In this document: piece after piece, positions 325-20,699 of the stretch
How positions within the stretch are numbered: position 1 is the first letter of the stretch
Layout: each line of letters opens with the position of its first letter
Assembly: GCA_001724265.1 (NCBI GenBank)
Contig: MEDY01000191.1
Coordinates: 62,001-83,164 of the forward strand
From: Rhizaria sp. SCN 62-66
Taxonomy: Eukaryota
Reading direction: 5' to 3'
DNA: 21,164 nt
Translations under genes and position numbers: made by a program
The notes under the pieces: model-generated
Databases searched by the model: none
Told to the model about the DNA's origin: nothing
What the model saw: the letters and a program-made list of their open reading frames with translations, nothing else

Positions 325-2679
325 TCAGGCGCGCTTGCGTCCGCGCCCGCGGCCATTACCGACGCGCGCCATGATGGCGAGCACAAGGGTCGCGGCGGCG
401 TTGGCTGCGGCGACCAGGACGGTGCCGGCGACGGACACCACGGTCGCCGCCACGCCCCACAGATGAGCCAGCGTCGCGTCGGATGCGGCATCGCTCTCGG
501 AGACGGCACCGGTCGCACTGCCATCTCTGGCGGCGGCGACGGCGGTGTCCGCGGACGCTCTCGGGCTGGTGGTGCTGCTGCTGCTGTCATTCATGTTGGC
601 GCCCGCGACGGGGGTGCCGGGGAAGGCAAAGGAGCTGGCGCGGGTCAGCAGGCTCAGCGCGAGGCTGGGGGCGCTACTCTCGCTGCTCGCAGGCTGCTGC
701 TGAGCCGCCTGCTGCTGCTGCTGCTGCTGGCGCAGCAGGGCCTTGCGCGCCTTGCCGCTGCTGGCGCCCTTACCCGCGCGCTTCTTGCCGGGGGACTGCA
801 ACGCGAGCTGGCCGCCCGCGGCGACGGCCTTGCGCGCGGCCGCGGCCGCGTCGCGGTGCTCGTCGGCCCCGTCGTCGTCGCTATCCTCCTCGTTGTCCGT
901 CGCCCAGCCGGAGTCGTCGCCACGCGCCTCTTCCGCGTCCGCGCCGCCCTTGCTGCGCACCATAGTGACCGCCGCGCCGCTGGCGGGCGCTACTGGGGTC
1001 GCAGACGAGAAGGACGACGACGGCGACAGGGAGCCGTCACGATCCTTGCTGTCGCCGCCAGCGTTGCTGCTGAGGTTGCTGCGGTGGCCCTTGCCGGGCG
1101 TCCGCGACGCCTTGGTGCTCGCACTTGCGTTGTCGTTCATCTAATCACTCTAGCGGCGCAGACGGCGGAGCGCGGCGGCCTCGGCCTCAGCCTCAGCGGC
1201 AGCCTCAACGGCGTTGGCGGCAGCCGTGGCGGCAGCGGCGCGGGTGGCCTCGGGCCCCTGGTAGGAGAGGTAGACCTCGAGCACGGTGACCATGATGCCC
1301 GAGAGGAGCGGGCCGAGGATAACGCCGATGGTGCCGAAGACGTAGAGACCCATGGCGAGCGAGGTGCCGACGAGGAAGGTGTTGCCAGGGATGATGCCGT
1401 AGATGAGCGAGTCGCCGGCCGAGAGCAGGAGCTGGACGGTGACGACGAGCACGGCTTTGACGGGCGCGCCGGTGATGGCGAGCCCCGCGGCGACGGGGAC
1501 CCAGACGACCCAGGACGAGAGCACGGGCAGCATGGCGGTGAAGCCGGCGATGAAGGACAGGATCAGCGAGATGTCGATGCCGACGAAGAGGAACACGAGG
1601 TACGTGCCGAGCATGTGCGAGAGGCCGACAGCGGTGGAGGACACGAAGACGGACACGACGGACTTGTTGAGCGAGCGCATGAGTTTGCCCGAGTCCTCCT
1701 GCGAGAAGGGCGAGAGGTCGGTGAGCAGCCCGCCCCACGACAGCTGCGTCTGCAGGAAGTAGAAGAGGCACGACGCAAAGGTCACGAACGAAACAAGCAG
1801 CGAGACCGAGTCAGCGAGCACGCCCAGGACGCCGCCCAGCGCGCCCGTGAGGTGGTTGCTAAACTGCATCGCAGTGTCGACGATCGTGGTCTTCACCACC
1901 GCGGCGTCCCAGGGCGGCAGCTCCCAACCCCACGTCTTGGCGTAGCGCTCGAACCAGAGGTAGTAGGGCGAGGAGCCGAAGTCGTCAAGCAGCGTCTGGA
2001 ACTGCGGGTTCTCGTCAACGAAGGCCTGGATCTTGGCGACCAGTGCCTGGGACTCAGAGATACACGACTTGACGAAGAGGAAGAGCGGGAAACAGACGAG
2101 GAAGGCGACGACGGCGAGGCACAGTGTGGCCGCCACAGTCGAGCGATTCGCCCAGATGAGGAAGGACCAGGCGGAAAAGACGACGGTGGCAACGAGCACG
2201 TTGAGCAACGCCTCGGAGCTGGTGAGCAGGATGAGGACGTAGACGGCGAGCGAGCACAGGTACACGGGGACGCGGTAGGCAGAGATGGCGACGTCGAGCC
2301 GGTCCAGCGCGCGCGTCGTCACCAGCAGCGGCTTGTGCAGGAACACGGACCAAAGCAGCGCCCAGAGGATCGGAGTGAGGTGCGGCAGCAACATGAGGCC
2401 GTTGTAGTAGACGAGCAGCACGATGAAGAGCAGCACGAGCACCTGCGACAGAAAGTCGAACGTGCGCTGGATGCGCGCCTTCTTCAGCTGGTTGTGGATC
2501 TTCATCAGATCAGAGTCGCTGGGGGCAAACAGAGAGGACGATGAGCACTGCTGCATACCACCCGCACTCGCGTCAGCGGAGCCAGAGGCATCAGAGGTTG
2601 TTGCAGACTTGTTCTGCCTGTCGCTGCTGGCGGCGTTAGGGGCTCCAGAGCCCTGTGCGCCGCGGTTCTTAGCGGACAT
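325..2679 (-). CDS. TMEM245-like / AI-2E transporter superfamily multi-pass membrane protein; 784 aa if TAGs at 1150-1152 and 1141-1143 are read as sense (509 aa if TAG is a stop)
   Basis: ATG at 2679. Many hydrophobic helices. Motifs HLTPILWALLWSVFLHKP, LSFIAGFTAMLPVLSSWVVWVP and GLYVFGTIGVILGPLLSGIMVTVLEVY resemble TMEM245/AI-2E proteins. ORF 1150..2688 and ORF 325..1140 are in the same frame, separated only by TAG AGT GAT TAG. Terminal TGA at 325-327. Confidence 0.8.
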
Positions 2680-3776
2680 TATGCCCACAAAAGATGTCGC
2701 TGCGCAGGTCAGGCATGTAGGTCCGGTTGCATTGCAAGATCAGTTCAATGACAAACGAATGGGTGCGGGAGAAGGTAAGTGAGTGAGCATGTGGATTTAG
2801 GCGTGAGGGTTGATTTTGGCGAGTCAATTTGTCAACAGGGTGATCGTCAAAGACAAGTGTTTTCACAGAAAATGACTGCATTTATAAAAATAAACGCAAT
2901 GTTCATAAAACATAACGGTGCCTTATGGATTCGACTCAGGACGCATCAATCTACGTCGGGGCCAGCTGTGCGCCAACTCCATACTGGCGCTCGCGCGGAT
3001 AATGTGATGCGCAGCCCAACGAAAATACGTATCTCCCTCAGCTACGCTCGCCTGAAAGATATTTTTCTGCATACTTTCACTAGATATCATAAGATGTTCG
3101 TGTGACAGACAGTATGCGTACATTTTGAGTTCATTCATGAACGTATGTACCCCCAAATCCATGTTGATAGTTTAAAACGAGTGACATTTGAATGAGCATG
3201 CATTTGTATTGCTTTCTCAGTTGCGAGCACAGAACGCATCATTTTGTGCACGTATAAAAGGTTTTGGATATTGAACAGTAGACTATAGAATGGAGGGTCT
3301 GCGCAGACAGAGAGGCGCAGCCACACTTGTTGAGACTAACTAAGCGATTGGCAGACACGAGGCAGAATCAGACAACAAGCCACTTCGCACAGACATTAAG
3401 TACGGAGAAAAAACTGGAACTGAAAGCGAAACACGACAGCGCAACGAAACTAAGAGATACAATAGATTGAGATGATACACTGAACATAAGCACATGATTT
3501 GGGAAAACATTTAAAAATATGCACTAAAAATGCTACTATCGTCAATTTTTGGCATGGTGTGAGAACTGATGCAGCAAAGCTCAAGACCCGAACTAGTCGC
3601 CGCGCGCGCTCAACGCCGCATACATGGTACTTAGACAGTGAAGACACTTAGAGAGCAAAAAAGGAAACAAAAGAAGAGATAAAATAGATACTGAGCTGTT
3701 TGGGAGCAGGCTTAAATTCATCCGTTGCCACTCCCCGCTCGCAGCAGCCAGCGGCACCGGCAGCAGACAGCACACC

Positions 3777-4046
3777 TTACTGCTACTGGTGCTGCTGCTG
3801 CTGCTGGAGCTGGCGCTACTGGTGGTCCGCGACGACCTGCGCGACGAAGATCTGCAGCAGCTGGTCGGGGCCGACGTGCTCGAACTGGCCCTGCAGCCCA
3901 GCCAGCTGCTGCAGCCACGCCGCCAGCACCGCCTCGCGCTCCGTGGGGACGGGCTCGACCAGCTCCGCCAGCTGCCGCAGCTGCTGCACATGCGACTCCT
4001 GCAGCTGCAGCAGCTGTTGCTGCTGCGGCTGCTGCGGCTGTTGCTG

Positions 4047-4089
<43 letters not shown>

Positions 4090-5025
4090 AGCTGCTGCTG
4101 GTAGTGCAGCTGTTGATGCTGTTGAAAGTACTGCTGCTGCTGCTGCTGCTGCTGCTGTTGTTGTTGCTGTGCCTGCGCCATTGCCTGAGCCTGAACCTGT
4201 GCCTGTGCCAGCGCTTGGGCCTGCGCCTGCGCCTGCGCCTGCGCCTGTTGCGCGAGGAGGAGCGCCTGGAGGTTGTCGAGCGCCTGCTGGTTCCCCTGCG
4301 CGATCTGCAGCGCGACCGCGTCGCCGAAGCCCGCCGACTCGCGCAGCGCCTGCAGCCCCGCGGGGCCGAGCGCGGCCAGGTCGCTGGCGCTCAGGCCCAT
4401 GCCGGCTACCTGCGCGGCGAGCTGAGCGGCGACCGGAGCCTGCGGCGCGGCGGGCGGCACCCCCAGGCCGCCGCCTACCGGGGCGCCCGCGAGGACCAGC
4501 GCCTGCAGCAGGAGCTGCTGCTGCTGCTGTTGCTGCTGGAGCTGTTGCTGCTGCTGCTGCTGCTGCTGGATTTCGACCTGGAACTGGTGCTGCTGCTGCA
4601 CCTGCTTGAGCTGCCGCTGCATTTGCTGCTGCTGCTGCTTCTTCTGCTGCTTCTTGTCCAGCGGCCCGGGAGACAGCTGAGGCGCGGCGCCAGTGAGCAT
4701 GTACCCGTTCGCTGCGGCTGCAGCTGCCGCGGCGGCGGCGCGGGCCTCCTCGAGCGCGCGCTTGCGCTCGCGCCCGTCGCGGTCGCGCTCCTCGCGGGCC
4801 CGCGCAGCCGCCGCGACCTCGGTTGCAGCCACGGCCGGGGGCGCCCATTCGGCCCACTTGTCGGCCACCAGCGCGCGCGCCTCGGCCAGCACGGCGCTGA
4901 CCACGGGCAGGATCGCCTCGATGTCGCGCTCCAGCTCCGCGGCCGGCCGCGGGACGGAGGCGTCCAGCTCGGCCAACGCCGCGGCGTCGGCCGCGGCCTC
5001 GGCGGCCTCCGGGTCCTGCTCAGCC

Positions 5026-5057
<32 letters not shown>

Positions 5058-8000
5058 ACCGTCGCTGCCCGCACCACCAGCACCAGAGCGAGCGGCAGCG
5101 TTGTCGTCATCGTCGTCGTCTTCCTCGTCGTCGGTGGCGGCTGCGGCTGCGGGGCTGGGGGAGGCCAGCGGGGGCAGCCCGGAGCTGCGGCGCGTGCTCG
5201 TTTGCATCGGCACCCCCGTCTTGTTCCACCACGGCAGTCCGCCGTTCGCACCCCCACTCGCACTCGAGCCGGAGCCGGACTCGGCGGCAGCTTTCGAGCT
5301 AGCAGCAGCCGTCTTGCCGCTGGCCTCACCCTGTCCCTGGCTCTGGCTCTGGCTCGCCCGCGGCTTAGGGGCGAACGCGGGCCCGCCCTCGGCCGCGCGC
5401 CTGCGGCGCTCGTCGCTGTGGAGGTAGCCCGCGACGAGGCGCTTGGGCAGGCGCAGGCGCAGCGACGCCGCAGGCGGGTCCCAGTCGCTGGCGTCAGCCA
5501 GCTCGACGGCGCCCGCGAGTGGGTGCGACGGATCCAGCAGCTCGGGCGCGAACGCGGACCCGTCAGCCGCGATCACCACGATGCCGCGCGCGTTGGCCGC
5601 CGCCGCCCAGGCCGCCGCGTCGTCGGCCGCACCGGCGCCGGCGCCGTCGCCGCCCGCTGCTGCTCCCGATCCAGCTGCTACGCCTGCTGCTGCGCCTGCT
5701 GCTGCTGCTGCTGCGGCGGCGGCGGCGGCGGCACCGGGGGCCTTGGTGTTCCCGCCGAAGAGCTCCGCGGCGCGGCGCGTGATGGGCGGCGCCTTGAAGT
5801 TGGGCCGCGTGTCGGCCTCGTCGTCGGTGTGCTACTCGTCGCTCTCGCCGCAGTAGACGCCGGGCTGCAAGTCGGGGTCCGTCTGCGCCTGCGCCTGGAG
5901 CGCGGCCACCGAGGGCGGCGGCGGGCGCGCGGTCGCGAAGCGCGCGCGCACTGAGGGCAGCACCAGGGCCGCGATGCGGTCGGCTACGTTCGACGGCGAG
6001 TCGACGTCGGCGAAGTAGCGTGACTGGAAGCAAACAAACAATCGAAATTGGAATAGGACAACGCGATATGTGAGAATTATGAAGTGAAAACAAAATAATC
6101 AAGGTTAAAACAAAGTAAACAATATTATATGAAGTAGTTATACGTGCAAGAATAAGATATCATTTCGTTTTCTCTTCATAGTGTTGCGTTTTAGCATACC
6201 TGCAGGTCCATCTCATCGAGCGCGGGCAGCGGGATGATCCGCAGGTCCTCCCCGCTGGCGACGATCGCCTCCACAGTGGGCGCCTCCTCTGGCCCCTGGC
6301 CCTGCAGCCGCTGCTCGGCGTGCTTGGCGAGCGCGCCGGGGAGCCAGTTGCGCTGGAGCCAGTCTGCGCGCAGGTCCCGGAGCCGCGCCTCGAGCACGTG
6401 GCCCGCGACGCGGTACTCGACCAGCTGTTCGTGCTCCAGCGCCACGCGCTCGTAGTCGCGCGCGCGCCGCAGCCGCCGCTGGTGCAGGCGCCGCAACAGG
6501 CGCAGCCGCTTCCAGCCGCGCTGCAGCGTGCGAAGTTCGCGCTCGCGGTCGCGGCGCGCGGCGTCGAGCGCCGCCAAGCGCTGCGCTTCGCGCGCCGCCT
6601 TGTCGTCCTCGCGCTTGCGCCGCTGCTGCTCGGCGTGGGCGCGCCGCTCCGCCTCGATGCCGCGCAGCCGCTCCAGCTCCGCCTCCTTGCGGTCCGCCAC
6701 CGTCACGCGCGAGCGCTCCGAGCGCTTGCGCGGCAGCAGCTGCAGCCGCATGCGCCGCTCGGCGGCGCGCGCCTTGGTCGCGAACGACGCCCACAGAGGC
6801 GGCAGCACCGCAGTCAGCAGCGCCGTGTGCAGCGCGGCGGCAGCGCGCACGGCGCCCGCGGCGCGCGGGAAGGGCGACGGAAGCGCGAGACGCGCGGCAA
6901 CGCGCGCGCGGGCGGCCGCCTTGCTGTCACCGTCCTCGTCTTCGTCGTCCTCGTCGCTCTCCTCGTCGTCGTCGCCGCCGTGGCGGGGATGCGCCGTGGC
7001 AGCAGCCTTGCCGTGGCCGCCGCCGTCCGCGCCGTTGTCGTCGCCGTCCTCGTCGTCTGCGGCGGCCGCGGCGGCGGTCTGCGCGTTGCGCAGCGCGCGC
7101 GCGGCGCGGGCCTCCTTCTCCGCGGCGGCGGCGGCGGTTGGCGCGACTGCAAGCGCGCCGCGCAGCGCGTGGGCCAGAGCCTCGAGCTCGGGCAGCGAGG
7201 TTGCCACCACAGTCCACACCGGGGTCGGGGCGGGGGGCACGAACAGCCAGCCGGGACACTCTTCCAGCAGGTCGATCGCGCTCGCACTCGCGCTGGCGCT
7301 GGCGTTGGCAGCAGAGGCAGCGTTGTGGCCGTCGTCGTCGTCGGCGTCAGAGGCGAGGTCGGAGTCGTCGCTGACGTCGCTGTAATTGTTGGCCCCGTCG
7401 CTCTCGCTGGCGTCACCGTCGCTGTCAGCCTCGGACGCAGCCTCGGAATCGGACGCATCAGCCGCAGACTCGGCCTCGGCCTCAGTCTCAGAGGACTCCG
7501 ACTCTGTTTCTGACTCAGTCTCGGAACTCTGCTCATGCGCACGTTTGCGCCCGCCGCGGGCCGCGCCGCCCCGGACGGTCGTGGCCTTGGCCGCCGCGGC
7601 CTTAGCAGGCGTCTTCTGCCCCCGCGCACTGGCGCCCTTGGTCGATGCGCCCTTGACGGGGGTGGCCCTGGCGGAGCGGGATCCGCGGGGACTGGCGAGC
7701 TCGACCTCGCTCTCACTGCCACTCTCGCTGCCACTGCCACTCTCGCTGCCGCTGGCGTCGTCGCTGCCGCTAGAGCCGCGCCTAGCGCGCTTGGACGTAT
7801 TGCTGCCGCCACGGCCGCCGCGGCCGCCGCGACCACCGCGACCGCCGCGGCCGCCGCGGCTCGTCGGGGTCTTAGCCGGGGTCTCCTTGGCCGGAGTCTT
7901 ACCGCCCTTGCCGCCCCTGCCGCCGCTGCCCTTGCTGGGCGTCTGGTTCTTCGCCCGCTCGGCCTTAGCCGCGGCCTTGGCCTCGGCCGCCGCGGCCTTG

Positions 8001-9990
8001 GCCTCGGCCCTGGCCCTGGCCCGCGCCTTGTCGCGCCGCCGGTCGCGCCGCGCCTTCTCGCGCGCGTTCTTGGCGGCCACCGCGCTGTCACGGCCGCCGG
8101 TGAGCTGCGGCGCGACGGGCGTCTCGCGCCACACCCACGTGTCGTCGGGAGCGAAGCGCCAGTAGAGCCCGCCGCAGCCGTCGGCGCCGATGGGGCGCGG
8201 CCGCAGCCACTCGAGGTCCGCGCCGGGCGCCGCCGCCGCCGTCTCGTGCTCGGTCAGCGCGGCGCCGTGCGGGTGCGGCGCGAGGAGCGCGGCGACGGCG
8301 GCCGTGCCGGCGGGCGGGACGGCCAGCTCGGGCGGCGGGAGCGGCGGGCAGCCCGCGTGAGCCTCCTTGAAGAGCGTGTCGGCAGTGTCGAGCTGGTGTT
8401 GGCACAGCAGCAGCAGCACGTGCAGCCGCTCCTCCACGCTCAGCGCGGAGAACGACCGCAGCGCCGGCGCGGGCGCGGGGGCGGACGCCGGCGCGGGCGC
8501 AGCACTGGTAGTCGTGACGGGGTCCGTGTCCGTGTCCGCGGCGGCAGCGGCAGAGGCGGCGGTGGCGGAGGGCGGGGGCGCGGGGCCGTGCACTGCGGCA
8601 GCGGCAGCGCCGTCGCCGTCGGTCATAGCTGTAATTGCAGTCTCACCGGCGATCGCAGTAAGGGATGTGTCCGCAGAGTCTGTAGTCTTGCTCTTGCCGG
8701 CCTCGGTCTCGGACTCTGAGCCGGAGTGCTCATGCTCGTTGTCGTGGTCGTGGTCAGAGTGATCGTGGTCGTCATGATCGTCCTCGTCGTCGTCCTCCTC
8801 ATGGTCATGGTCATGTTCGTGGTCATCGGCGTCGGCGTCGGCGTCGGCAGCGGCGCCACTGCTGCTGCTGCTGCCGCTGCCGCCGCTGCTCTTGGCCGCG
8901 TTGGCGGCGCGCGCGGCGGCGCGGGCGGCGTTGCTCCTGTTACGGCTGCGGCTGCTGCCGCCGAGCCAGAGCCGGCTGCGGTTGCGCGAGCCGCTGCGCG
9001 CGCCGTTGGCGAGGGCCCTCTCAGCGGCGCGCTCGGCGGCGGCCGCGGCGGCCTGCGCCTTGGCCTCTGCGCGGGCCTTGTCGACGGCGGCCTGCTCGGC
9101 ATTGGTGAGCCGCGGCGCCGTCATGGGCGTCCCGCGCAGGTCGTAGGCGACGGCGACGTCGGCCAGCACGGCGCGCAGCACCTCGGGCCAGCGGTGGAAG
9201 TGGGACTCGCGCAGGCGCTTGAGCGACAGGCCGGCCGCGGGCACGCCCGGGATGTCGCGGCCCTTGTCGAAGATGAGCCGCCAGATGAGGTGGCCGAAAA
9301 GCGGGGAGGAGTCGGGGAAGATAATCGCCTGCTCCAGCTCGTCCAGCGTGTAAGGGCCCAGCGCGAACCAGGGCTTGAAGGCGACGACGAACGACACCAG
9401 GGCGGCGAAGCGCCACGAGGGGCGCAGCTCGGCTGGGTGGGCGCGGGGTGGGGAGCAAAAAAGAGAGAGGGACGCAGAAAAAGCCGTTGTAAAATATAGA
9501 GCGAGTGTTCAAGTGAGCGGTGCAGATGTGGGGCGCAATGCGAGCGAGATGAAAAGAGACACTGTGCGCGTTTTGGCGCTCTCGACCAGATACTCCGATG
9601 ACAGCAGATTCGGGGCGAAAGAGTGGTTTGGGCGCGCAGAAGCGTTACAGCGCGCAACAAGCAGGTGCCAAGCAGCTGAGTATCTGGTACATCGGCGGCG
9701 CCGGCGTTGGGCAGAGCGTGGCACGGTGCCAGCGCAGGCGAAGGGCAGAACAGGCGTGTGCGCGGGCTGCCGTCAGAGTGATGTGTGGTGGCGGGACGCG
9801 TCGGGGCGTGCGAAGAAGCGAAACAGGGATATAAATAGCATGGCAAGATAAGAAACGTACCCCGAAGACGGTCCGCCTCTGCGGACGTGTTGCGCTGGAA
9901 GATTTCGTGCTGCGTGAGCTCGTGGTCGTCCTCATCGGGCGCCTGCGAGGGGGAGCCGAGGGGCTGTCCGGCGCCATGTGAGCCGCTCAT
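3777..9990 (-). CDS. DDT-WHIM domain chromatin-remodelling accessory protein (RSF1/CECR2/plant DDT-like), about 1869 aa; join complement(9861..9990, 6200..9432, 3777..6023) with three internal TAG codons
   Basis: Splicing exon 1 to exon 2 rebuilds a DDT-like segment (RLRAELRPSWRFAALVSFVVAFKPWFALGPYTLDELEQAII...LIWRLI). WHIM1-like FSALSVEERLHVLLLLCQHQL; WHIM2-like LRPRPIGADGCGGLYWRF...WVWRE; WHIM3-like WTVVATSLPELEALAHAL. Both introns are GT-AG and phase-compatible. Exon 3 stays in one frame through TAGs at 5832, 3816 and 3783 to TAA at 3777-3779. The 3' end depends on the genetic code. Confidence 0.8.
3780..4650 (-). repeat. CAG/CAA-rich polyglutamine and (QA)n coding region at the C-terminus of the DDT-WHIM protein
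   Basis: Long (CTG)n/(TTG)n runs on the + strand at about 3790-3806, 4000-4170 and 4510-4650, plus GCCTGC hexamer repeats at about 4170-4245. Confidence 0.9.
6024..6199 (-). other. Spliceosomal intron 2 of the DDT-WHIM gene (176 nt, phase 0)
   Basis: Donor CAG|GTATGC, acceptor TGTTTGTTTGCTTCCAG|TCA, AT-rich; joins DEMDLQ to SRYFADVD in frame. Confidence 0.88.
9433..9860 (-). other. Spliceosomal intron 1 of the DDT-WHIM gene (428 nt, phase 1)
   Basis: Donor G|GTACGT; pyrimidine tract ending CCCACCCAG|CC; the splice restores the N-terminal helix of the DDT domain. Confidence 0.78.
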
Positions 9991-10509: not shown

Positions 10510-10783
10510 ATGAGCAGCCCCTCCCCAGCTGCAGTGAAGCCCTTCGCGCTGGGCGCAGCACTGGGCGTCGCCTCGGCTGCGGTCGCCTTCTGGCTCTTCT
10601 CTCGTCTCGCCCCCTCGCCCTCAAAGAACAGTAATGTGGGTGTGAACGCCTCCGCGTTGAGTCTGGCCGAGGATGGCGATACGCCGCCGCCGCTCTCCCC
10701 GCTCCCGCTGCCGACTGCCACATCTGTCACTGTTTCCGTACCGCCCCAGCGCGCTCCGCTGCACGTATCCGTCGCCGACGCAG

Positions 10784-10828
<45 letters not shown>

Positions 10829-13221
10829 GCAACAGCACTACAAGCAGCAGTGGCCTTAATGGCAGCCTGAGCGACAAGGCGCCCCGCACCCTTGGCCTTG
10901 GCCTCAACACGAGCGCCAACAGCAGCAGCGCAAGCAGCAACGGCAACGGCAACAGCTCCCGGCGCAGCTACGGCGGCCTCGTCTCCCCGCGTTCCGCCGG
11001 TGTCCTCTCCCCCACCGCCGCGCACCGCGCTGCTCACGGTTACCCGGCCGCCACCCCCAGCGGCGGCGGCAGCGGCAGCGGCGGCCGCGCCGCGCGTTCC
11101 CCCTGGGCTCCCTCGCCCTCCTGCAGTAGCAGCAACAACGGCGGCAGCGGCAGCGGCAGCGGCAGCGTGACTCCTGCCGAGCGGGCGCGCGCGCGGCGGC
11201 AGTACGTGCGCTCGCACCTGGCGGCGCTGTCCTCCGAGCGCGCCTTGGCAGACGCTGTCGTCGCCGTATTCGACACCATCGTCCAGCAACGACCCGCCAA
11301 CAGCAACAACAGCAGCAACACATCCACTCCCTGCGAGACCGCGTCCTCATTCTCCGGCCCATTGTCGCTCAGCTCGCCGCCGCAGTCGCACGCGCGCGCC
11401 GCCGCGGTGTGCGCGGCGCTGACGACACGCGAGCCCCTGCAGGCGGCGCTCTCGTTGGCCGAGGTCGAGGCCTTCCTGGCCGCGCTGGGGCTGACCCAGA
11501 GCGCCAAGGCCGCCGTGCTCGTGGCCCTCCGCGGCACGGCCGCCGCCACCGCCGTTGCCGGCAGCAGCGTGAGCGCCGCGCCGCGCGTGGGCGACGGCGG
11601 CCGCGCCAGCTCGCCTGCCAGTGCCGACGCCGACAGCGCCGCCGACGCCGACGCGGGCTGCGAGGGACTGCTGTTCACCCGCGCGGCGTTTGAGGCCGCG
11701 TTCCGCGTGTGGGACAGCGAGCCCGCGGCGCGCGCCAAGCTCGACGCCTTTGAGCAGTACTACGTCGAGCAGTACCTGCCCACGGTCACTGACGGCGCCA
11801 GCAGCAGCAGCAACGCTGACGGCATCGGCGAGGGCGCTGCGGACGAGGCTGGTGCTGCTACTGCTGCTGCTGCTGCTGCTGCTGCTGTAACTGCCACTGT
11901 GCCGAGTGCGCGCCCCGCTGCCGCCCCTCGAGGCTCCCGCAGCAACGCCTCTGGCGCTGGCGCTGGCTCTGGCTCCGGGGCCGGCTCTACCACAGGTTCC
12001 GGGGCTGCGACGCCCGCGGGCGCCACCACTCCCGCCGGCGGCTCCCCCAGCGGCGTCGTCCGCCGCGTCCTCGTCTCCAGCGCCAACAACAACGGCAGTG
12101 GCGCTCATGCGGTCAGTGGCAGTGCAGGCGTAGTGCCGGCCACTCCTGCTAGCAACAACAACAGCGCGCCTGTGTCCCCGAAGCCTGCCAGCAGCTGCAG
12201 CGGTGCCTCTAGCGCGCCTGTTCCCAACGCCAGCGCCAGCGCCAGCGCCAGTGCTAGTGGTGGCCGTGTCGGCGGCTCGACTACCCGCGCCCGCCCGCTG
12301 CCGGCGCTCATTTTCCCCGAAACTCCCCGCACCGGCCCGAGCTCGAACAATAACATCAGCGCGAGCAGCAGCAGCAGCAGCAGTAAGGGCGCATTCACAT
12401 TCGCTTCTGTGCCCGAAGACTCCCCTCTCCCTAACTCGAACACTCCCGGCGACGACGCTCGCAGCAAGCTCACTGGCGGCGCCACCGCGCGCAGCGGCAG
12501 CGCGCGCAGCAGCAGCGGCGTGGACGTGTTCCTGGGCGGCGTGTGCGGCAGCTCCACGTGGCGGCTCGACACGGCCATCCCGGCGCTGGAGCGCCACGGG
12601 CTCTCCTACTACAACCCGCAGGTCGCGGACTGGAAGCCCCAGGTGATGTGCCTGGAGAACCTCATGAAGGCGTGGGCTCGGTGGCAGCTCTTCGTGGTCG
12701 ACGCCTCGACGCGCGCGACCGCGAGCATGGTCGAGGCCGCGGCGCTCATCGCCGAGGGCCGCAAGGTCGTGTTGGTCCTGGCCGCTGTCGCCGCGGGCGC
12801 GCAGGTCGACGGCGGGCCCGCGCTGGGTGAGCTGGAGGCCAAGGACCTCAACCGCGGACGCGCTTACCTGCGCGAGGTCGCCGCGGCGCACGGCGTCGCG
12901 GTGGCAGAGACCGTCGCGCAGGGTTGCGAGCTGCTCGTGGCCGCCATCGAGACTGAGGCCGAGGCAGAGGCCGCCGCGGAGGCGGAGGCAGAGGCGGAGG
13001 CGGAGGCGCGCGCTGCCGAAGCCGCCGACGCGCTGGCGCTCGGCGTGGACGAGGCGGGGGATTACTATGGGGACGACGACGACTGCGACGGTGACGGCGA
13101 CGGCAAAGGCGGCTGCAACAGCGGTGGCCGGCTGGCTCGGGGCGGGGGGCCCGACTTTGAGAGCGAGGTGCGCATGATTCACTCCAGCGACGACGACGAT
13201 GACGGAAACGATAGCGATTGA
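10510..13221 (+). CDS. 903-aa protein with an N-terminal transmembrane anchor, long low-complexity linkers and a C-terminal Raw-like / nucleoside 2-deoxyribosyltransferase-like domain
   Basis: Single ORF from ATG to TGA. Hydrophobic FALGAALGVASAAVAFWLF near the N-terminus. Domain at about 12520-12950: DVFLGGVCGSSTWRLDTAIPALERHGLSYYNPQVADW...LFVVDASTRATASMVEAA...DLNRGRAYL, matching my recollection of the Drosophila Raw repeat (VFLGGSC..TTWR..AIP....YNPQV..W; DLNRGR.YL). Confidence 0.85.
10786..10827 (+). repeat. (AAC)14 microsatellite encoding poly-Asn
   Basis: Perfect trinucleotide run, in frame within the Raw-like gene. Confidence 0.95.
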
Positions 13222-13607
13222 GAGCGACAAAGCGCAACCGACTCGCGCGTCGCGTTGGCGTCCTATGATTGGAGTTCTCCGGAACCTAGAGAACTTCACA
13301 ATGTGATACCATTTCTAAATTAAGTACATTGACGGCGGTTCTTCCTATCATATAATGTTTGGTTTTTGACGAGTTCTATGTTTCAGATCGATAGCGAACG
13401 ATTAATTGCTGTCTGTACATATCTACTGTGTGTCTGTTGAATGTGATACTATCTTGACCCTTGTTATTAGCTGTTTTGGCATACTTAGCTTTATTATTCT
13501 ATTTTATTCTGTATATCACCACAAAATAATACACTGATATCCATGTACATGTCCATTTAACATCAACCAGTACTGCACACAGTGTTACTGGACAGTCACA
13601 CCTGCGC

Positions 13608-14243
13608 TTACTCCTGCTTCTTCTTGAGCGTGATGACGACGTTGTCGTGCGCGCCCTGCAGCAGCAGCGGCGAGTCGTACGTCAGCAGCCCGCGCGTCTT
13701 GGAGTTCTTCAGCGTCGCGGCGAGCGCCTCGAACGTGTTGGACACCTTGTCGTCCTGCGCGCAGCACGCACGAACACAAATGCGAGTGGAGCATACAAAA
13801 GTGGGGATATGACACGGAAAATAAGCATTAATAAAAAAAATCGAAGTTATAATATGGGCCTCAAAATAAAACCGTTTAGGAGTAGTGAATTCAGTCAAAT
13901 ATCGAAATTAGTGCGCTGAAGTGAGTTCTGTGACGGACCTTGAATAGCTTGCCGAAGGTGATGGAGTAGGAGCCGTCGGCGTTCTCGGTGCCGAGGGCGC
14001 GGATAAACTCCTGCAGCAGCACAATCTCCTCCTCGTTCTTGCGCTTAATCTGCGGTGGAGGGAAGCCGGGAACAACAAATATATATGGGTAGACAGCAGT
14101 GAGATAAAAGGGCGACAGAGGGGAAGATCCGAAACGACGACGTAGCGAGAAGGATACGCAGAGCGAAAAAGAGGATCGAGCGGAAAGTATGTGTGTAGTG
14201 GGCATAAGCGTACCTCGTCGACAATGGCCTGGGACTGGGACAT
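13608..14243 (-). CDS. ABRACL: Costars family protein (ABRACL-like), 95 aa; join complement(14214..14243, 13939..14049, 13608..13754)
   Basis: Spliced product MSQSQAIVDEIKRKNEEEIVLLQEFIRALGTENADGSYSITFGKLFKDDKVSNTFEALAATLKNSKTRGLLTYDSPLLLQGAHDNVVITLKKKQE has the Costars signature (EEI..L...I..LG..N.DG...FG.LF.DD...N.FEAL..TLK..K......Y...LLLQG.HD.V.I.L). Two phase-0 GT-AG introns. An upstream in-frame ATG lies at 14279. If TAA is sense, the end moves to TGA at 13596-13598. Confidence 0.93.
13755..13938 (-). other. Intron 2 of the Costars gene (184 nt)
   Basis: AAG|GTCCGT ... GCGCGCAG|GAC; joins LFK to DDK of the conserved motif. Confidence 0.9.
14050..14213 (-). other. Intron 1 of the Costars gene (164 nt)
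   Basis: GAG|GTACGC ... CCTCCACCGCAG|ATT; pyrimidine-rich, phase 0. Confidence 0.82.
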
Positions 14244-14678
14244 GGGGTTGTTGCTGCGGGGTTCGGGGCGCGAGAGCATGGGACGAGTGGAGGCAGCAAC
14301 GGACACGCGTGCGGCGCGAGGAAACGGGGTCGGAAGATGGAGTGAGACACAATTGAGCGCGTACAACGCATCAGCAAAAGGGGCAATTAATAAAGTAGTA
14401 GTAGCAGTCAAAATGTGTGCGCTGCAGAGTCAGGTAGTGCATTTATCGTGTGGTATAAAGAAAAGTTTCGATGCACGGTCGAGTGACAGGAGTTGGCCCG
14501 CGTTAAGACATGAAGTTTATTACCAGTGCCCTGAACCGTATCATCCGTTAACGCCACTGTCCATCGATGAGGGATTATTATTTGTAAATTTAAATACATT
14601 CTCAAAATTATACTCCTTGAAATTTTGTTCTCGTTTCTCTATAGGCTCGGCGCATCGCGAGACTACCATCACATCAAC

Positions 14679-17600
14679 ATGAGCGAGCCGACGTACACGG
14701 TCGAGAAGATTCTGTCGCATCGTGGGCGCGACGCCGATCTTCAGTACCTGGTCAAGTGGGTCGGCTACGATGAGGAAGGCGACAACTCCTGGGAGCCCGC
14801 CGAGAACTTCCTCGACCTCAGCGTGCTGGCGCAGTACAAGCAGCAGGCGCACCTGCCGCTCTCGGACGCGGAGCGTTACTCGCTTCTCACCGCCACACCC
14901 GTGCCAGCCCCCGCACCTGCGCCTGCGCCGGCCAAGGCATCGACGACTCCGAAGGCCTTGATCTCGAATAAGGCTAAGGCAGTGCCTGCGCCCGCACCTA
15001 CTACACCGAGTAGCGGTAACAGCTCTAGCAAGAGCAGCAGAGCGCCTGCGTCTGAGGCCGTGGCCGCTGCTGCTGCGACCGGCCCCACATCATCGCCATC
15101 AGCATCCTCGTCGTCATCATTGTCATTACTGGCGGCAGCGACTGCGTCTGCGCCTGTTAAGCCGCCGCCGGCGACTGCATATGTGAAGCCGGCGGCTGAT
15201 ACCGAGGTATCAGCCTTCAAACCCAGCATCAGCGCCAGTGCCAGCCCCAACTCGAGCAAGAGTTCGAGCTTTAAGTCAAGCTCTGGATCTAGTAAGACAG
15301 ACAAGGCCGATAAGAAGGACAAGAAAGATAAGAAGGACAAGAAAGATTACAAGGAACGCTCTTCTTCTAGCAGCAGCAGCAGCAGCAGCAGTAGTAGCAG
15401 CAGTAAGGACAAGAAAGAAAAGAAGAACAAAAAGGACAAAGACGACAAAAAGGACAAGAAGGATAGCAGCAGCAGTAGCTCCAAGGACAAGGACAAGAGC
15501 CGCAGCTCCACCTTCGTCTCCAGCATCGCCCCATCCTCTGCTCTCGCCCACGGGCCCAGCCCCATGCCAGTAGTACCTCTCTACACCGCGGCCCCCGCCG
15601 CCGCCGCCTCGGTCCCTGTCTCGTTCCTGGCGCTGACGGCTCCCTCCAAGCTCGCAAGCGCCATCTCCGCCCCCGCTCCCGCAAGCAAGGTCGCGGCCCA
15701 CTCTCCGAGCGCCCACCTGACCCTGTCACTGCCGCCGCCGGCCATGGCCATGGCCGCGGTGCCCGTCGTCGGGCCCGAGGAGCCGCCCCTGGTGACGCCC
15801 GCGGTCCACGCTTGGGTGCAGGCGCAGCTCGTGGCCGAGCCCGCCGCGCGGCGCGTGTGCGCGGGGCTCACCGCCGTGCTCGACGCCGCCACCGGGGCCC
15901 GCAGCCCGCTGACCGAGGCCACCCGGGGCGCCGACGCGGCGCTGTGGCGGGACCGCGTCGCGCCGCTGCCGCCGCCCGCCGCGCGCGCCTTGCTCACGTA
16001 CGAGATGCCGCCCGAAGAGGAGCTGCTGCCCGGCGCGTCTTTTGTGCCGAAACTCACACTCGTTAGCGCGGAACAAGGTACGCGACTGGCTCACCGCTGC
16101 TTGGTTTGACTTAAATTTTGCTTAAAACGTATTGATCATGGTTTTAATGTGATGTTTTGGAATTAAATCTTACCTAAAACATGAATCTCTCACGATATTT
16201 CTCCCTAATTTTGTGTGTTTGTTTCGATTTTCTTTGTTCGTGCGGTACAACAGTGCGCAAGAATGACATCGCGTTCGCGTCGAAGTACGAGGTGCCGATG
16301 ATGGTCCATGCTGCCATGTGTACCGTCGTCGGGCTCACCGCGAAGCAGTCGATGCACAAGACGCTTAGTGACGCGCTGCCGCAGATGCGTCTGAGTCCCG
16401 AGACGCGGGCCGCGACGCTCAACGTGCTCGACGACGCCGCCGAGTGCATCGCCACCAAACTGGTACGCAGCTTATCCTCAGTTCAAGTCGCCAAACCATC
16501 ATATCTCCAAATCCAAAGAACTACTCAAGGAATATACTCGAATTTGTATGACTAATTTATCTGTCTCTTTCACAATATATTTTGCTTTTATCTCTGTATT
16601 CTCTGATGTGCGCCATATACTTCTTGTTTTTCTCTCTTCACTCTCGCTTCCCACTTCCCCAGTCCACCAAGCGGCTCACAGTCGCCGAAGCCCGCCAGCG
16701 CCTCAAAGTCGCCAAGGAGGCCCTTGTAGCCGCCCAGAAGGACTCCGACGACAAGGCGAAACGCGCGCACACGGCCGAGAAACTCTCCGCGCGCGCCGCT
16801 GAGCGTGCGCGCGTGGCCAACACCGTGGGGACGCGCACCGACGCCGCAGCGCAGGCGGCTACCGCGGCCGCGGCCGCGCGCACCGCTAAGGAGGCCGCGG
16901 CCGCCGTGGAGGACCGGCGGAAGGGCATCGCGGATGCCGAGGCCGACCTCAAGCTTGCGATAGACACGAAGCTCCGGTCGGGCGTATCGAGGACGGGGGC
17001 GGCGGTGGCCGCGGGGATCGCGGCGGTGGCCGCGATCAGTGGTGGCACTGCCGCTGCCGCAGCTGCGGCTGCCGCTGCTGTTGATGGGAAGAGTAATGCT
17101 GGCAAGTATGACGACAAGAAGGACCGCAGCAGCAGCGGCAGCGGCAGTGCAAGTAGTCATGATGCCGGCGACAGCAAGAGCAAGCCTATTAGCGACAAGA
17201 GCGGCTCACACAGCAGCAGCAGCAGCAGCAGCAAGAGCAGTGACGCCAAGCCTGCGAAATATGACGATAAGTCTAAGGGTCTGTCGAAGGAGTCCAAGTA
17301 CAGCTCCAAGCCGTCGAAATCTTCTGATAGCTCCAAGTCCAAGAGCTCTAAAGACTGGTCCTCGAAGAAGGCGTCCAAGAGCACGAGCAAGAGCAGGAGC
17401 AGGAGCCGGTACAGTGACGACTCGAGCTCCAGCTCTCTCTCGGACTCAGACTCGTTCTCGGACTCCAGCTACGGCTCCGACTCGAGCTTTGACTCGGACT
17501 CAGACTCGGACTCGAGCTCCTACTCCGACACAGCCTCAGACTTCAGCTCGAGCTCGAGCCCCAACTCCAGTTCCGACTCCTCGGACTCTGAGCTCGACTC

Positions 17601-17859
17601 CGACTCCGAGTCAGAGCGCCGCCGCCGCAAGTCAAGCAGCAGCACCACCAGCAGCTCGAAGACGAGCTCCCAGTCAAGCAAGGCCAAGTCCAGGACTCCG
17701 TCGCAGCACAAGCGCGCTCTGTCGGACGACTATAGCGACCCCGACAGCGACGCTGACCGCACGGGCAAGGGCAAGCAGAGCTCGAGCTCGAGGTCCAGCG
17801 GGGCTGTCGGTGCTGTTGGCTCTGGCAGCGGCGATAAGCGCGCGCGAGGTGGGCAGTGA
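14679..17859 (+). CDS. Chromodomain protein, 934 aa; join(14679..16077, 16254..16462, 16663..17859)
   Basis: N-terminal chromodomain YTVEKILSHRGRDADLQYLVKWVGYDEEGDNSWEPAENF with aromatic cage residues Y, W and Y. It is followed by P/A/S-rich and KDK-rich segments, a higher-complexity central region, a predicted coiled coil and an S/D/K-rich tail. Both introns are phase-compatible. Ends in TGA. Confidence 0.87.
15295..15500 (+). repeat. (KDK/KKD)n charged repeats interleaved with poly-Ser (AGC)n
   Basis: AAGGACAAG/AAAGATAAG 9-mer variants encoding DKKDKKDKKDKKD and KDKKEKKNKKDKDDKKDKKD. Confidence 0.85.
16078..16253 (+). other. Intron 1 of the chromodomain gene (176 nt, phase 1)
   Basis: CAAG|GTACGC ... 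T-rich ... ACAACAG|TG CGC AAG. Confidence 0.85.
16463..16662 (+). other. Intron 2 of the chromodomain gene (200 nt, phase 0)
   Basis: CTG|GTACGC ... pyrimidine tract ... CTTCCCCAG|TCC ACC AAG. Confidence 0.85.
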
Positions 17860-18365
17860 GCCTTTCTGCGCGTGACAACAACAAGCGCAACGATTACATA
17901 GAATTACTTAGATAAATAGAATAACAATACATACATCAATCCTATTTAAAATCACAAGACATAGTTACGTATGAGTTATCTGTATTGGAATACAATCACA
18001 ACAAAGATTAATAGTGTCTCGCCTCGCGATGGCTCTCGCAGTGCTCGCGCGGGTAGCAAGTGCACCGCACGCGAGCGTTGTAACAACTCTCTCCTTCTCC
18101 CGCCCGTGTTGCTGTGGCTGCATGCAAAAGTAGATCAAAAGTAGTTCCAAGTCTATAAGTTACTCGCATCTCTGACTGGCATGGCCTAACACGGCTCAGT
18201 TCAGACACAACTAACTCACTCACTTCGTCATTCGCAGCGCTTAAATTCATACAAGCTGCTCTCACTCCTTTCTAACTTAGCCACGTGTTCAAACACAATA
18301 CTCTCGACTTAACTCAACTCGACCCAATTTCACCTCTCTCGGCTCGGCTCCCTCGCGGCCCACGC

Positions 18366-19505
18366 TCACATCTCCTCCTGCGAGCGGCGCACGATCTGCC
18401 TGATCTTGCGCTTGTAGCCCTCGGGGTCGGTCTTGAACTGCACGCACGCGTCGACGTTGGCCGGCGAGTCGCAGTTGGGATCCGTGAGCATGGACACAAC
18501 CGAGAGCAGCACCTGCTCGACGCCCAGAATGGGCCGCCACTTTTCGCTCACGGGCTCGTTCGAGTTGTACTGGTCCTCGGCCGGCTCGTGCAGGATCGAG
18601 ATGCACACGCGGCCGTCAGGGAACACGTTCGGGTGCCAGAAGCCCTTGGTCTGGAACGTCATCTGCGGCGGATGCTCGGGGAAGTTGCGCGGGAAACGCA
18701 GCGTGGCCGGGAAAAGCCCGCCCTCGAAGGCCGTGTCCTCGGGGCCCTGGATCAGCACGCGCCAGTGGTAGATGTCGTCGCCAATCAGCCCCACGTTGAG
18801 CCCGTCGGGCGGGTCGCGGGACATCTGCTTGAACTGGCTGCGCAGGATCGCCATGCCGTAACCCGCGCCTTGCGCCGCCGAGCGGGACCGCTTGTTGCTG
18901 TTGCTGTTGCTGCTGTCTGCAGCGCTGCTGCTGCCCGACTGCTGCTGCGACGCCACCGCGGCCGCGGCCGCGGCCGCGGCTGCGGCGGCAGCGCCAGCAG
19001 CGGCGGCCGAGGAGGTAGCCGTCGCGCCGTTGCTCCCGATGATGTGGTTGCTGAAGGACGGCGCGGCGACTGCGGCGTTCGCGATGGCGGCGGCAGAGCT
19101 CCACGAAGACCGTACCAGACCGCCGTCGCTGCCGCTGCCACTGCTGCCGCTGTCATTGCTGCTGCTGCTGCTAGTGTTGGCGCTGACGCTGGCGGTGGCG
19201 TTGTCGCTGGCGACGACGTCGTTGTAGGTGCGGCGCGGGCGCGGCGGCACCGGGACGGGGGCCTCGGTGTTGCTGTCACGCTCGCGGTCGCGGGAGGAGG
19301 AGGAAGAGAACTGAGGGGCGGAGCGGGCGACGGCGGCGTCGATCGCGGCAAGAGTGTTGCTGCTAATGCTCGAAAGTGCGGACGCGGGGGCCGCCGGAGA
19401 CGCGGATGAGGATGCCGAGGAGGACGACGACGAGGCGGATGAGGTCGCCGTGACCTCATCGGTCGAGTTGTCGCTCTGGGCTTGAACAGGAGACATCGAC
19501 GACAT
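18366..19505 (-). CDS. UBC7: Ubiquitin-conjugating enzyme E2 of the Ubc7/UBE2G (Cdc34-related) class, 379 aa, with about 210 aa of S/A-rich N-terminal extension
   Basis: UBC fold: WRVLIQGPEDTAFEGGLFPATLRFPRNFPEHPPQMTF...WHPNVFPDGRVCISILH (catalytic Cys), acidic loop insertion EPAEDQYNSNEPVSEKW and PNCDSPANVDA. First ATG at 19505 in CAACATG context. Ends in TGA. Confidence 0.92.
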   Translation of the reverse strand: MSSMSPVQAQSDNSTDEVTATSSASSSSSSASSSASPAAPASALSSISSNTLAAIDAAVARSAPQFSSSSSRDRERDSNTEAPVPVPPRPRRTYNDVVASDNATASVSANTSSSSSNDSGSSGSGSDGGLVRSSWSSAAAIANAAVAAPSFSNHIIGSNGATATSSAAAAGAAAAAAAAAAAAVASQQQSGSSSAADSSNSNSNKRSRSAAQGAGYGMAILRSQFKQMSRDPPDGLNVGLIGDDIYHWRVLIQGPEDTAFEGGLFPATLRFPRNFPEHPPQMTFQTKGFWHPNVFPDGRVCISILHEPAEDQYNSNEPVSEKWRPILGVEQVLLSVVSMLTDPNCDSPANVDACVQFKTDPEGYKRKIRQIVRRSQEEM

Positions 19506-20699
19506 GTTGGGATAAATACGACGTGTACCTTTGTAAAAAGTGCTGCGGTAAAAGAGTTGAAAGACGTTCAAGTCCAAAAAGTGGGTGCCTTGGTGGCGAG
19601 CGCGGGGTCTGAAGACAAAACGAGGGGGACAAGGTGTCATTAGCAGGAAGCAGGTAATGATGGTTTTGACAAGAAAGATCATAGGGAAATCTGTAACGCG
19701 CAAGGCACAGGTTAACAGTCGTCATTTAATACACAGCTATAAGGTGCCACCTAAAGAAGACATCATTTGACTTCACAAAGTGAGTGGGAGTGTTGTTTCT
19801 ACGTGGTGTTTCACTGCATTCGAGAGCACCTTTCGGTAGATTGCCGCTATGAGATGAAATCAACGCAACAAGATGCACCGCTAATAAAACAGACACAATG
19901 CTCATGTGGTTATCATATATTGTACGCCGATCACAGTATTGACGACGGAATACGCCGCTGACGATCCATTTCGAAGACCCCTCACAGGCGTCGCCTCAAC
20001 GGGTCGCTCTCTGCCCCGCTGTCTTGGATTGCCCTCGCAAAGGTGCTCACAGTCACTGTAGAGCAGGGTCTTGATGCGCTGACTTCAAATCAGTATGGCT
20101 ACATGAAATCATTGTCAAGTGAGCCTTGGTTTTGATATGCTATTGGTCAAATACTCACATATATGAAATAATGACTTATTAATGCATAAAAACTGACCCT
20201 GTCCCACTATCCCCTAGACCTCCGTCGTGGACTTTGAGAGCGATCCGAGACTCACATCATCCCCAACAAACGCGGGTCAGAGCCCTGGGCCTTGATGGGA
20301 GGACGGTGAGGACTTGAAGTGGTGTAAACATAAACTTGAACAATTTGCCAATGATCCACTCGCAGCGATATGCTTCTATGTTTACCGCGTACAACACGCT
20401 TCGAAAACAAGGCTCTTGTTTTTCGCATTGCGCTTGCGTTGAGTTTTGTGCCTCATCTCGCATGTCTCTGCGTGACCGCACTTCAGACTCAGCCGAGCCC
20501 CTCATCCTGCCTTTTATTTATTCTTCAACTTGAATTCCTTCTTTATATCTCTCTTGTCTCACTTCTGCCTCTTCTGCTTTGCCTTCCATTGCTCCTATGG
20601 TGTGCTCTGTTCCCATCTCCTCTCTTCTTCGTGTCCTTTGCTCTCTTACTTCTTCTTGCCCTCGCCCTGCCTAACCCTCCCAGCTCACCCCACCGCACC

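Follow-up and report, generated by a model that had tools for sequence, protein, structure and literature searches.

In-frame UAG codons in two adjacent genes of a GC-rich, probably rhizarian protist: a lead for a UAG-only code variant

Does UAG still end translation in every gene of the organism whose nuclear DNA is represented by contig MEDY01000191.1? The question is raised by two adjacent genes on the minus strand of a 21,164-nucleotide stretch of this contig (the window: the whole stretch of DNA that was analysed, about 21 kb), in which a reading frame meets TAG and then continues as coding-type sequence. Gene A encodes a transporter of the AI-2E family, and gene B a low-complexity chromatin-type protein. 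A sequence-only reading of this DNA had proposed that UAG is a sense codon here. We found that the locus hints at, and is a good lead for, a further code variant in which UAG alone is altered, and that the pattern also partly fits ordinary or leaky termination. UAG may well be decoded as an amino acid in this GC-rich, probably rhizarian protist, with UGA and UAA as working terminators, and we put this reading forward tentatively.

Five in-frame TAG codons and the coding sequence beyond them

The five minus-strand TAGs lie in frame exactly where the sequence-only reading had placed them, at 5834-5832, 3818-3816 and 3785-3783 in gene B and at 1152-1150 and 1143-1141 in gene A (Table 1), and each is named below by its lower coordinate. 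The frames running through them close at TGA 327-325 (gene A) and TAA 3779-3777 (gene B), as had been described, and the remaining gene ends (TGA 13219-21, 17857-59 and 18366-68, and TAA at about 13608) were also located as expected. Counts of TAG, TAA and TGA were based on six gene models with 4765 codons in total. The models contain five in-frame TAGs, no internal TAA and no internal TGA, in line with the earlier statement on internal TGA. In-frame TAGs are confined to two of the six models, so the frequency of UAG is 5 in 4765 codons, and the base following TAG (+4) is C at three of the five sites.

The TAGs were compared with other public data, in which RNA and DNA runs are represented by assembled contigs and not by reads. 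Contig records 2, 3 and 5 of DNA run X3, which comes from another study, span all five TAGs without a single difference. Records 10 and 11 of run X4 span four of them, the differences to the window lying elsewhere, and a separate Joint Genome Institute (JGI) contig, L001, is identical across TAG AGT GAT TAG ATG of gene A. Considering that four independent data sets (the window, L001, X3 and X4) agree base for base at the TAGs, the chance that an assembly or sequencing artefact lies behind them is negligible. The in-frame TAGs are confirmed as a real, reproducible anomaly.

Non-coding frames and the opposite strand of this DNA carry open reading frames (ORFs) of up to 760 aa, for example at 262-2544 and 4092-5954 of the plus strand, as a by-product of the GC-rich coding sequence. 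An open frame alone is therefore no evidence here, and a codon log-likelihood score was trained on six confident coding stretches of the window. The coding continuation extends for 271 codons after TAG 1150/1141 and for 684 codons after TAG 5832, and the claim that the same frame goes on with unchanged coding composition was borne out. The GC content at third codon positions (GC3) is 0.88 in the gene A tail, compared with 0.89 in the gene A core, and 0.86 in the gene B tail. The continuing frames score +0.49 and +0.29, against -0.72 to -0.90 for other frames: in the gene A tail the other two frames of the strand score -0.85 and -0.90, and in gene B, where the whole tail scores +0.28, the value of +0.29 belongs to the 208 codons before the first in-frame ATG (5831-5207), for which the other frames give -0.72 and -0.80. 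When the best-scoring frame was followed in steps of 240 nt, it was constant across both TAG sites, except that in four steps between 3601 and 4560, around the gene end and its CAG repeats, another frame scored equal or higher. No AT-rich spacer follows the TAGs, as the GC content of the next 100 nt is 0.64 after TAG 1150 and 0.74 after TAG 5832, whereas it drops to 0.28-0.53 after five undisputed gene-end stops and the TGA of a chromodomain ORF, and is 0.56 after TAA 3777. That coding signal continues after the TAGs, and not by chance, is confirmed.

Signs of decay were absent from both tails. Neither shows a frame change or, over 268 and about 670 codons, another stop, and their codon scores match those of the cores. 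The same undecayed picture would be expected of a very young truncation. In gene B, the 625 nt that follow TAG 5832 (5831-5207) lack an ATG in every frame, which leaves the tail without its own start codon. Because two long, codon-biased continuations follow in the same frame without start or spacer, translation through UAG, or a very recent loss of it, is the simplest account. The expectation that standard-code annotation breaks up both genes was correct, since databases hold them as pieces P0001, P0130 and P0009, and the last of these ends exactly at 5835, before TAG 5832.

The core of gene A matches Pfam family PF01594 (E=7.6e-21). The tail was predicted to be disordered and its own structure model reached a predicted local distance difference test (pLDDT) value of 0.46; it matched no Pfam family, a database search for homologues of the tail returned the tail itself alone, and a look-up in a structure atlas gave no usable look-alike. 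A single relative of gene A, P0002 with 45% identity, was present among 5.8 billion proteins. P0002 carries about 155 residues past the transporter core in one ORF, while gene A has 36 residues there before its first TAG, and the alignment of the two is not significant around the TAGs. For gene B, 444 residues of exon 3, with TAG read as Q, were compared with 1.84 billion database representatives using HMMER, and only the window's own 69-aa fragment was returned. The long ORFs in non-coding frames and on the opposite strand may be the reason why the gene B tail has no protein among these representatives.

RNA contigs were available for parts of gene B. One cDNA contig of run X8 (record 31) joins 9861 to 9432 in spliced form, and X8 therefore contains mRNA of the organism. 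On the gene B tail, X8 contigs lie at 5213-5448 and 3749-3960 and an X5 contig at 5200-5498; record 25 of X8 carries TAG 3816 and TAG 3783 unchanged. None of the listed RNA contigs spans TAG 5832, 1150 or 1141, which counts neither for nor against their translation, and this evidence consists of contigs only. Run X5, a polyA RNA run, also has contigs at 2762-3107 and 3367-3619, which include intergenic DNA, and one at 6009-6329 that crosses the second intron of gene B unspliced, so that this intron stays putative. X5 probably carries DNA or unprocessed RNA and was set aside as proof of expression.

Reassigned, terminating or leaky UAG

If UAG is a sense codon, gene A would encode a single AI-2E transporter of 784 residues that carries a disordered tail and, at its C-terminus, a hydrophobic anchor, and gene B a single chromatin-type protein of 1869 residues whose C-terminal part is Q-rich. 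Decoding would presumably depend on a tRNA with the anticodon CUA and on an eRF1 that recognises UAG poorly, and UAG would be a rare codon whose translation, residue and genome-wide rule we infer. With the tails read through, six of six gene ends are TGA or TAA, a count that is circular for genes A and B. Every TAG is one C-to-T transition away from the abundant CAG, and two of them stand in CAC CAG TAG at the end of the polyglutamine (polyQ) region. In the gene B tail TAG, CAA and CAG occur in the proportion 2:16:109, with the TAG at 5832 in addition, which is what a rare synonymous glutamine codon would look like. In gene A, the string TAG AGT GAT TAG could be derived codon by codon from the preferred CAG, AGC, GAC and CAG via C-to-T changes, and all four changes would be silent if TAG means Gln. 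On these codon contexts, the most likely meaning of UAG would be glutamine, with leucine as the second choice. The proposal that UAG specifies an amino acid can thus be narrowed in part: Gln fits best with the CAG-neighbour contexts, and the same contexts also allow Leu, the known rhizarian meaning.

Several observations weigh against reassignment. None of the five TAGs stands at a conserved column, and the four Pfam domains above cutoff contain none. The sequence-only reading had itself cautioned that its TAGs lie in low-complexity or unalignable segments, rightly so, as all five are outside conserved domains. No homologue was found to span any TAG in the search of 1.84 billion representatives with gene B exon 3 or in the search with the gene A tail, and neither a tRNA gene nor a gene for eRF1 lies in the 21-kb window. 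The four undisputed gene ends are TGA in three cases and TAA in one, an outcome with a chance of about 1/3 even if TAG made up 25% of stops. Furthermore, single-base nonsense changes arising from this codon usage give TAG in 75-76%, so that finding only TAG is weak evidence. The TAGs form two tight pairs, at codons 509/512 of gene A and 1812/1823 of gene B, and the simulated probability of at least two such pairs is 0.0006 if any codon may change, 0.0014 for Leu codons and 0.031 for Gln codons. The pair in gene A sits in a 15-nt patch with a GC count of at most 5/15, as found in 48 of 4730 in-frame coding windows; the patch holds two rare codons (AGT and GAT), ATG 1140 follows directly and a complete transporter domain ends just before, so that the junction looks like tandem stops followed by a new ORF. 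In gene B, the last two TAGs are at most 13 codons from the end, and TAG 3816 could simply be the stop. The RNA support consists of contigs alone, and the polyA run X5 also covers intron and intergenic DNA. Under reassignment, the clustering and the ATG would have to be put down to coincidence or to a single local burst of C-to-T changes. Of the original claim of reassignment, the reality of the TAGs and the same-frame continuations stand, and its genome-wide scope is only partly supported, with none of the five TAGs at a conserved column.

A strong hairpin at the end of gene B bears on the same point. At the frame end, CAG-rich sequence forms a stem with a CTG-rich stretch past the TAA; the folding energy is -64.5 kcal/mol (z = -3.9), and none of 200 shuffles folded as well. 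As judged from this predicted fold, the 5' arm of the hairpin offers a non-coding reason for the CAG-rich composition after TAG 3816, and this also counts against reassignment. Small GC-rich hairpins at the stops of other genes (windows 228-347 of gene A, 17837-17956 of the Ser-rich ORF, 18269-18388 of the E2 gene and 13511-13630 of the Costars gene) gave z values from +0.9 to -1.7; gene-end hairpins may be due to chance, and they follow no clear rule.

The standard code would account for the TAGs as true terminators, with the tails being young cut-off remnants or, for gene A, a separate ORF, and we regard this as possible although on balance somewhat improbable. In gene A, TAG 1150 would be the stop and TAG 1141 its backup, and the tail would be translated from ATG 1140 as a second cistron or by reinitiation. 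In gene B, TAG 5832 would be a young nonsense change and TAG 3816 the ancestral stop (a younger CAG-to-TAG change is also possible), which would leave TAG 3783 and TAA 3777 in the 3' untranslated region. Several features suit ordinary termination well: the TAG comes only after a complete transporter domain (profile 6-326 of 327), the gene A junction combines an AT-rich patch, two TAGs and two rare codons with an ATG directly after, the TAGs cluster at the ends, the nonsense spectrum is 75-76% TAG, low-complexity or unconserved sequence may tolerate truncation, and the hairpin accounts for the CAG-rich sequence past TAG 3816. Stop usage would then be TAG 2, TGA 3 and TAA 1, which is ordinary for a GC-rich genome. 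However, this explanation requires at least two very recent independent truncations, or one truncation together with a spacer-less in-frame second cistron, in two of six genes, and the tails are free of decay with codon scores as high as those of the cores. In a dispensable 684-codon tail, where about 250 codons are one step from a stop, we estimate that a new stop would appear within about 1% of neutral divergence. It is also unlikely that a second neutral TAG would arise three codons after the first with none in the next 268 codons. Moreover, the gene B tail is without a start codon, the TAGs are common to strains that differ at 4 of 2624 positions, and P0002 keeps a long tail in one ORF.

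UAG could also be a leaky or context-dependent terminator, giving programmed readthrough isoforms or acting as sense inside the message and as a stop near its 3' end, and such a state could be an early, intermediate stage of reassignment. Leaky or context-dependent termination best explains the positions of the TAGs, yet without positive support, and we consider it unlikely. The TAGs are found where the choice between stopping and going on harms little: behind a domain that is already complete, ahead of disordered tails and at the very C-terminus. The double TAG in gene A would set a low level of readthrough, the coding signal is maintained downstream, and C, the +4 base at three of the five sites, is the leakiest +4 base in eukaryotes. 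Drosophila readthrough extensions and the context-dependent stops of Condylostoma, karyorelict ciliates and Blastocrithidia are precedents. Long readthrough extensions and double readthrough occur in Drosophila, and UAG readthrough in viruses. With such extensions, of the Drosophila type or at viral UAG, the locus shares an in-frame stop followed by coding-type sequence, a double stop in one gene and C at +4 in three of five sites. It differs in having no stimulatory structure or motif and extensions far longer than the usual cellular ones. In the 120 nt after TAG 5832 and after TAG 1150, the predicted folds are not more stable than those of shuffled sequence (z +0.52 and +1.30), and none of the five contexts matches the readthrough motif CARYYA. 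For cellular readthrough, two neighbouring genes with extensions as long as 271 and 684 codons would be an extreme case, and the same data fit full reassignment equally.

Removal of the TAGs from the message by small or unconventional introns, or by RNA editing, seems very unlikely. TAG 5832 is part of a possible donor, GA/GTAGCA, and the known donors of gene B begin with GTACGT and GTATGC; in addition, a GT..AG pair 66 nt apart (5858-5793) would preserve the frame. The fit of X8 record 28 is limited to 5834-5930; it stops at the T of the TAG, and the record's letters beyond it on either side do not fit. The letters at 5932-5931, at the edge of the fit, are not AG, and no conclusion was drawn from this record. 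Against splicing, coding sequence begins with the first codon after each TAG in the same frame. A donor at 5835 joined to nearby AG sites gives introns of 43, 73 or 94 nt, all of which shift the frame, and record 28 crosses 5858 unspliced. Between the gene A TAGs there is just one GT..AG pair, which spans 8 nt and whose removal would not take out TAG 1150, and no joint around any TAG is present among the joints listed. Record 25 of X8, with TAG 3816 and TAG 3783 unchanged, argues against splicing and editing alike. Introns that would remove the TAGs were rejected, as the candidates shift the frame or excise coding-type sequence.

Comparison with known variant codes

Codes in which UAG alone has been reassigned, while UAA and UGA still act as stops, are known from a handful of eukaryotic lineages. 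In the sections of the two sources covered here, these are an uncultured sainouroid rhizarian (Leu), Iotanema spirale (Gln), Scotinosphaera (Ser), Protocruzia and several phyllopharyngean ciliates (PMC5304391; PMC11687900). Iotanema spirale, Protocruzia tuzeti and some phyllopharyngean ciliates, in which UAG means Gln, resemble the proposed system in that only UAG is reassigned, and Gln would fit the CAG-neighbour contexts of the window (PMC5304391; PMC11687900, in the same sections). According to those parts of the sources, UAG in such organisms is frequent and stands at conserved Gln columns of many genes, whereas in the window there are 5 in 4765 codons and none at a conserved column. They differ also in lineage, the organism here being probably a rhizarian, and in base composition, with a GC3 of 0.89 in the window.

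The nearest parallel by lineage is Rhizaria sp. exLh (Sainouroidea), for which the part of the source used here reports 384 in-frame UAGs in 71 genes, mostly at conserved Leu columns, and UAA as the end of 56 of the 71 (PMC5304391). Probably, exLh belongs to the same supergroup as the window organism, and like the proposed system it has UAG alone reassigned, with UAA and UGA as stops (PMC5304391, same part). A reference title in that paper describes relatives of exLh as faeces-associated amoebae, which suits the wastewater source of the window DNA (PMC5304391). Reading UAG as Leu, as in exLh, would give LRRLRR-L-SD-L in gene A. However, in that part of the source UAG is abundant in exLh and UAA is its main stop, whereas in the window UAG is rare and TGA the commoner stop. 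None of the roughly 360 Leu positions in the window genes, those of the Leu-rich transporter core included, is taken by UAG. If there is a reassignment here, the organism is not simply exLh and the reassignment event is possibly a separate one. A literature search, with supplementary tables outside its scope, revealed no rhizarian UAG reassignment besides exLh.

Condylostoma, karyorelict ciliates and Blastocrithidia, with their context-dependent codes, offer a different parallel: a single codon could be read as sense within the message yet terminate close to its end. Such a difference could exist between TAG 5832 and the last two TAGs of gene B. These organisms belong to other lineages and involve other sets of codons.

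Considering the few lineages in which UAG alone has changed, a further case in a GC-rich, probably rhizarian organism would, if true, be an independent data point on the uncoupling of UAG from UAA. If UAG is rare and limited to dispensable segments, it would give a picture of early codon capture. In a more specific scenario, which we hold to be doubtful, a free-living GC-rich rhizarian common in wastewater reactors would have reassigned UAG, probably to Gln, in an event independent of that in the UAG=Leu sainouroid. It would be at an early stage in which UAG is rare and tolerated only where failed decoding harms little, for example in linkers, in disordered tails or at C-termini. That would make it an instance, in nature, of stop-codon capture at the ambiguous-intermediate stage. 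Under the standard code, the locus would instead comprise two unusually young truncations or a spacer-less second ORF, and would be of local interest only.

Source organism and the other genes of the window

The window belongs to a eukaryotic nuclear genome, with a GC content of 65-80% and a GC3 of about 0.89 in coding parts and 35-55% GC in introns and intergenic DNA. Intergenic gaps elsewhere in the window are 0.5-1.1 kb long and AT-rich. The public runs with window DNA are bioreactor, wastewater and activated-sludge metagenomes from 2015 to 2025; ten of the 12 listed runs contain part of the window, and four contain at least half of its sampled words. Across 1242-3865, run X4 differs from the window at 4 of 2624 positions (1417, 3418, 3614 and 3664), so a slightly different strain exists. 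This run, from 2025, also lacks 18 bases at window position 128, in the AT-rich 3' flank of gene A.

The E2 ubiquitin-conjugating enzyme encoded in the window was used to place the organism. The best named matches of its domain are all rhizarian, namely Lotharella (62%), Plasmodiophora (61%), Norrisiella, Chlorarachnion, Spongospora and Cercozoa sp. M6MM, and oomycetes and alveolates rank next with 55-56%. A tree was built from 30 of 121 sequences (the query, 14 named matches and the 16 best matches) on one gene and 176 columns. In this tree the E2 of the window clusters with three environmental sequences beside the rhizarian ones and away from stramenopiles and alveolates, with a Shimodaira-Hasegawa-like approximate likelihood ratio test (SH-aLRT) value of 83. 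The organism is thus probably near or within Rhizaria, a working label taken from one gene of 176 columns. Scanning genome contigs for the E2 domain gave 20 pattern matches, of which none was confirmed. A metagenome scan with the gene A core returned a single contig of 1927 nt from the same organism and no DNA of any relative. Scans of the window for tRNA genes and against Rfam gave no genes and no matches, respectively.

Table 1. Positions of genes, parts of genes, in-frame TAG codons and other features in the window
Feature	Position	Strand	Basis or remark
Gene A, AI-2E family transporter	2679-325	minus	
Gene A core, AI-2E family transporter, 509 codons from ATG 2679	1153..2679	minus	
TAG no. 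1 of gene A	1150..1152	minus	36 codons past the end of the AI-2E core; unchanged in X3 record 2, X4 record 10 and L001
TAG no. 2 of gene A	1141..1143	minus	two codons (AGT GAT) after no. 1; ATG directly next
Gene A tail, 271 codons, low complexity, hydrophobic C-terminal segment	325..1140	minus	closes with TGA 325-327
Gene B, three exons, low-complexity chromatin-type protein	9990-3777	minus	weak WHIM1 match
Gene B exon 1, start ATG 9990	9861..9990	minus	X8 cDNA contig record 31 joins 9861 to 9432
Gene B intron 1, GT..AG, 428 nt	9433..9860	minus	spliced in X8 contig record 31; donor G/GTACGT, acceptor CAG/
Gene B exon 2, low-complexity chromatin-type	6200..9432	minus	WHIM1 E=0.0042, below Pfam cutoff; coding frame
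Gene B putative intron 2, GT..AG, 176 nt, AT-rich, phase 0	6024..6199	minus	sequence, GC dip, frame change
Gene B exon 3 before TAG, 63 codons	5835..6023	minus	GC3 0.95, codon score +0.37
Gene B TAG inside exon 3	5832..5834	minus	GAC GAG TAG CAC ACC, ordinary GC3-rich context; unchanged in X3 record 5
Gene B tail, 684 codons including two TAGs	3780..5831	minus	non-repetitive stretches and long polyQ
Gene B TAG 13 codons before TAA 3777	3816..3818	minus	CAC CAG TAG CGC; unchanged in X8 record 25, X3 record 3 and X4 record 11
Gene B TAG two codons before TAA 3777	3783..3785	minus	CAC CAG TAG CAG TAA; X8 record 25, X3 record 3 and X4 record 11
TAA closing the gene B frame	3777..3779	minus	GC down to 0.42 at 101-300 nt beyond
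Strong hairpin	3737..3810	minus	CAG-rich frame end pairs with CTG-rich stretch past TAA; TAG 3783 and TAA 3777 near the tip
Gene C, nucleoside 2-deoxyribosyltransferase-like domain	10510-13221	plus	
Costars-family gene (PF14705), two exons	13608-14370	minus	TAA end near 13608
Chromodomain ORF (region 14571-17859)	14676-16109	plus	TGA 16107-16109, next 100 nt at 28% GC
Ser/Lys-rich ORF	16552-17859	plus	TGA 17857
G-type E2 ubiquitin-conjugating enzyme	18366-19721	minus	TGA 18366
Start of a further gene, ORF running off the right end	20355-21164	plus	KGGKGMQGSF-like repeats

Among the remaining genes, gene C has a run of 14 Asn and long Ser/Ala/Gly-rich stretches N-terminal to its nucleoside 2-deoxyribosyltransferase-like domain. 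The two exons of the Costars-family gene divide the profile between them, positions 3-43 being matched in the ORF at 13891-14370 and positions 34-75 in the ORF at 13608-13907. The chromodomain and Ser/Lys-rich ORFs may be exons of a single gene; the AT-rich intron separating them would then fall within about 16090-16650. No Pfam family matched the rightmost ORF (20355-21164). The E2 enzyme has a low-complexity N-terminal extension of about 200 residues before its UBC core, the Pfam match covering residues 293-443 of the ORF.

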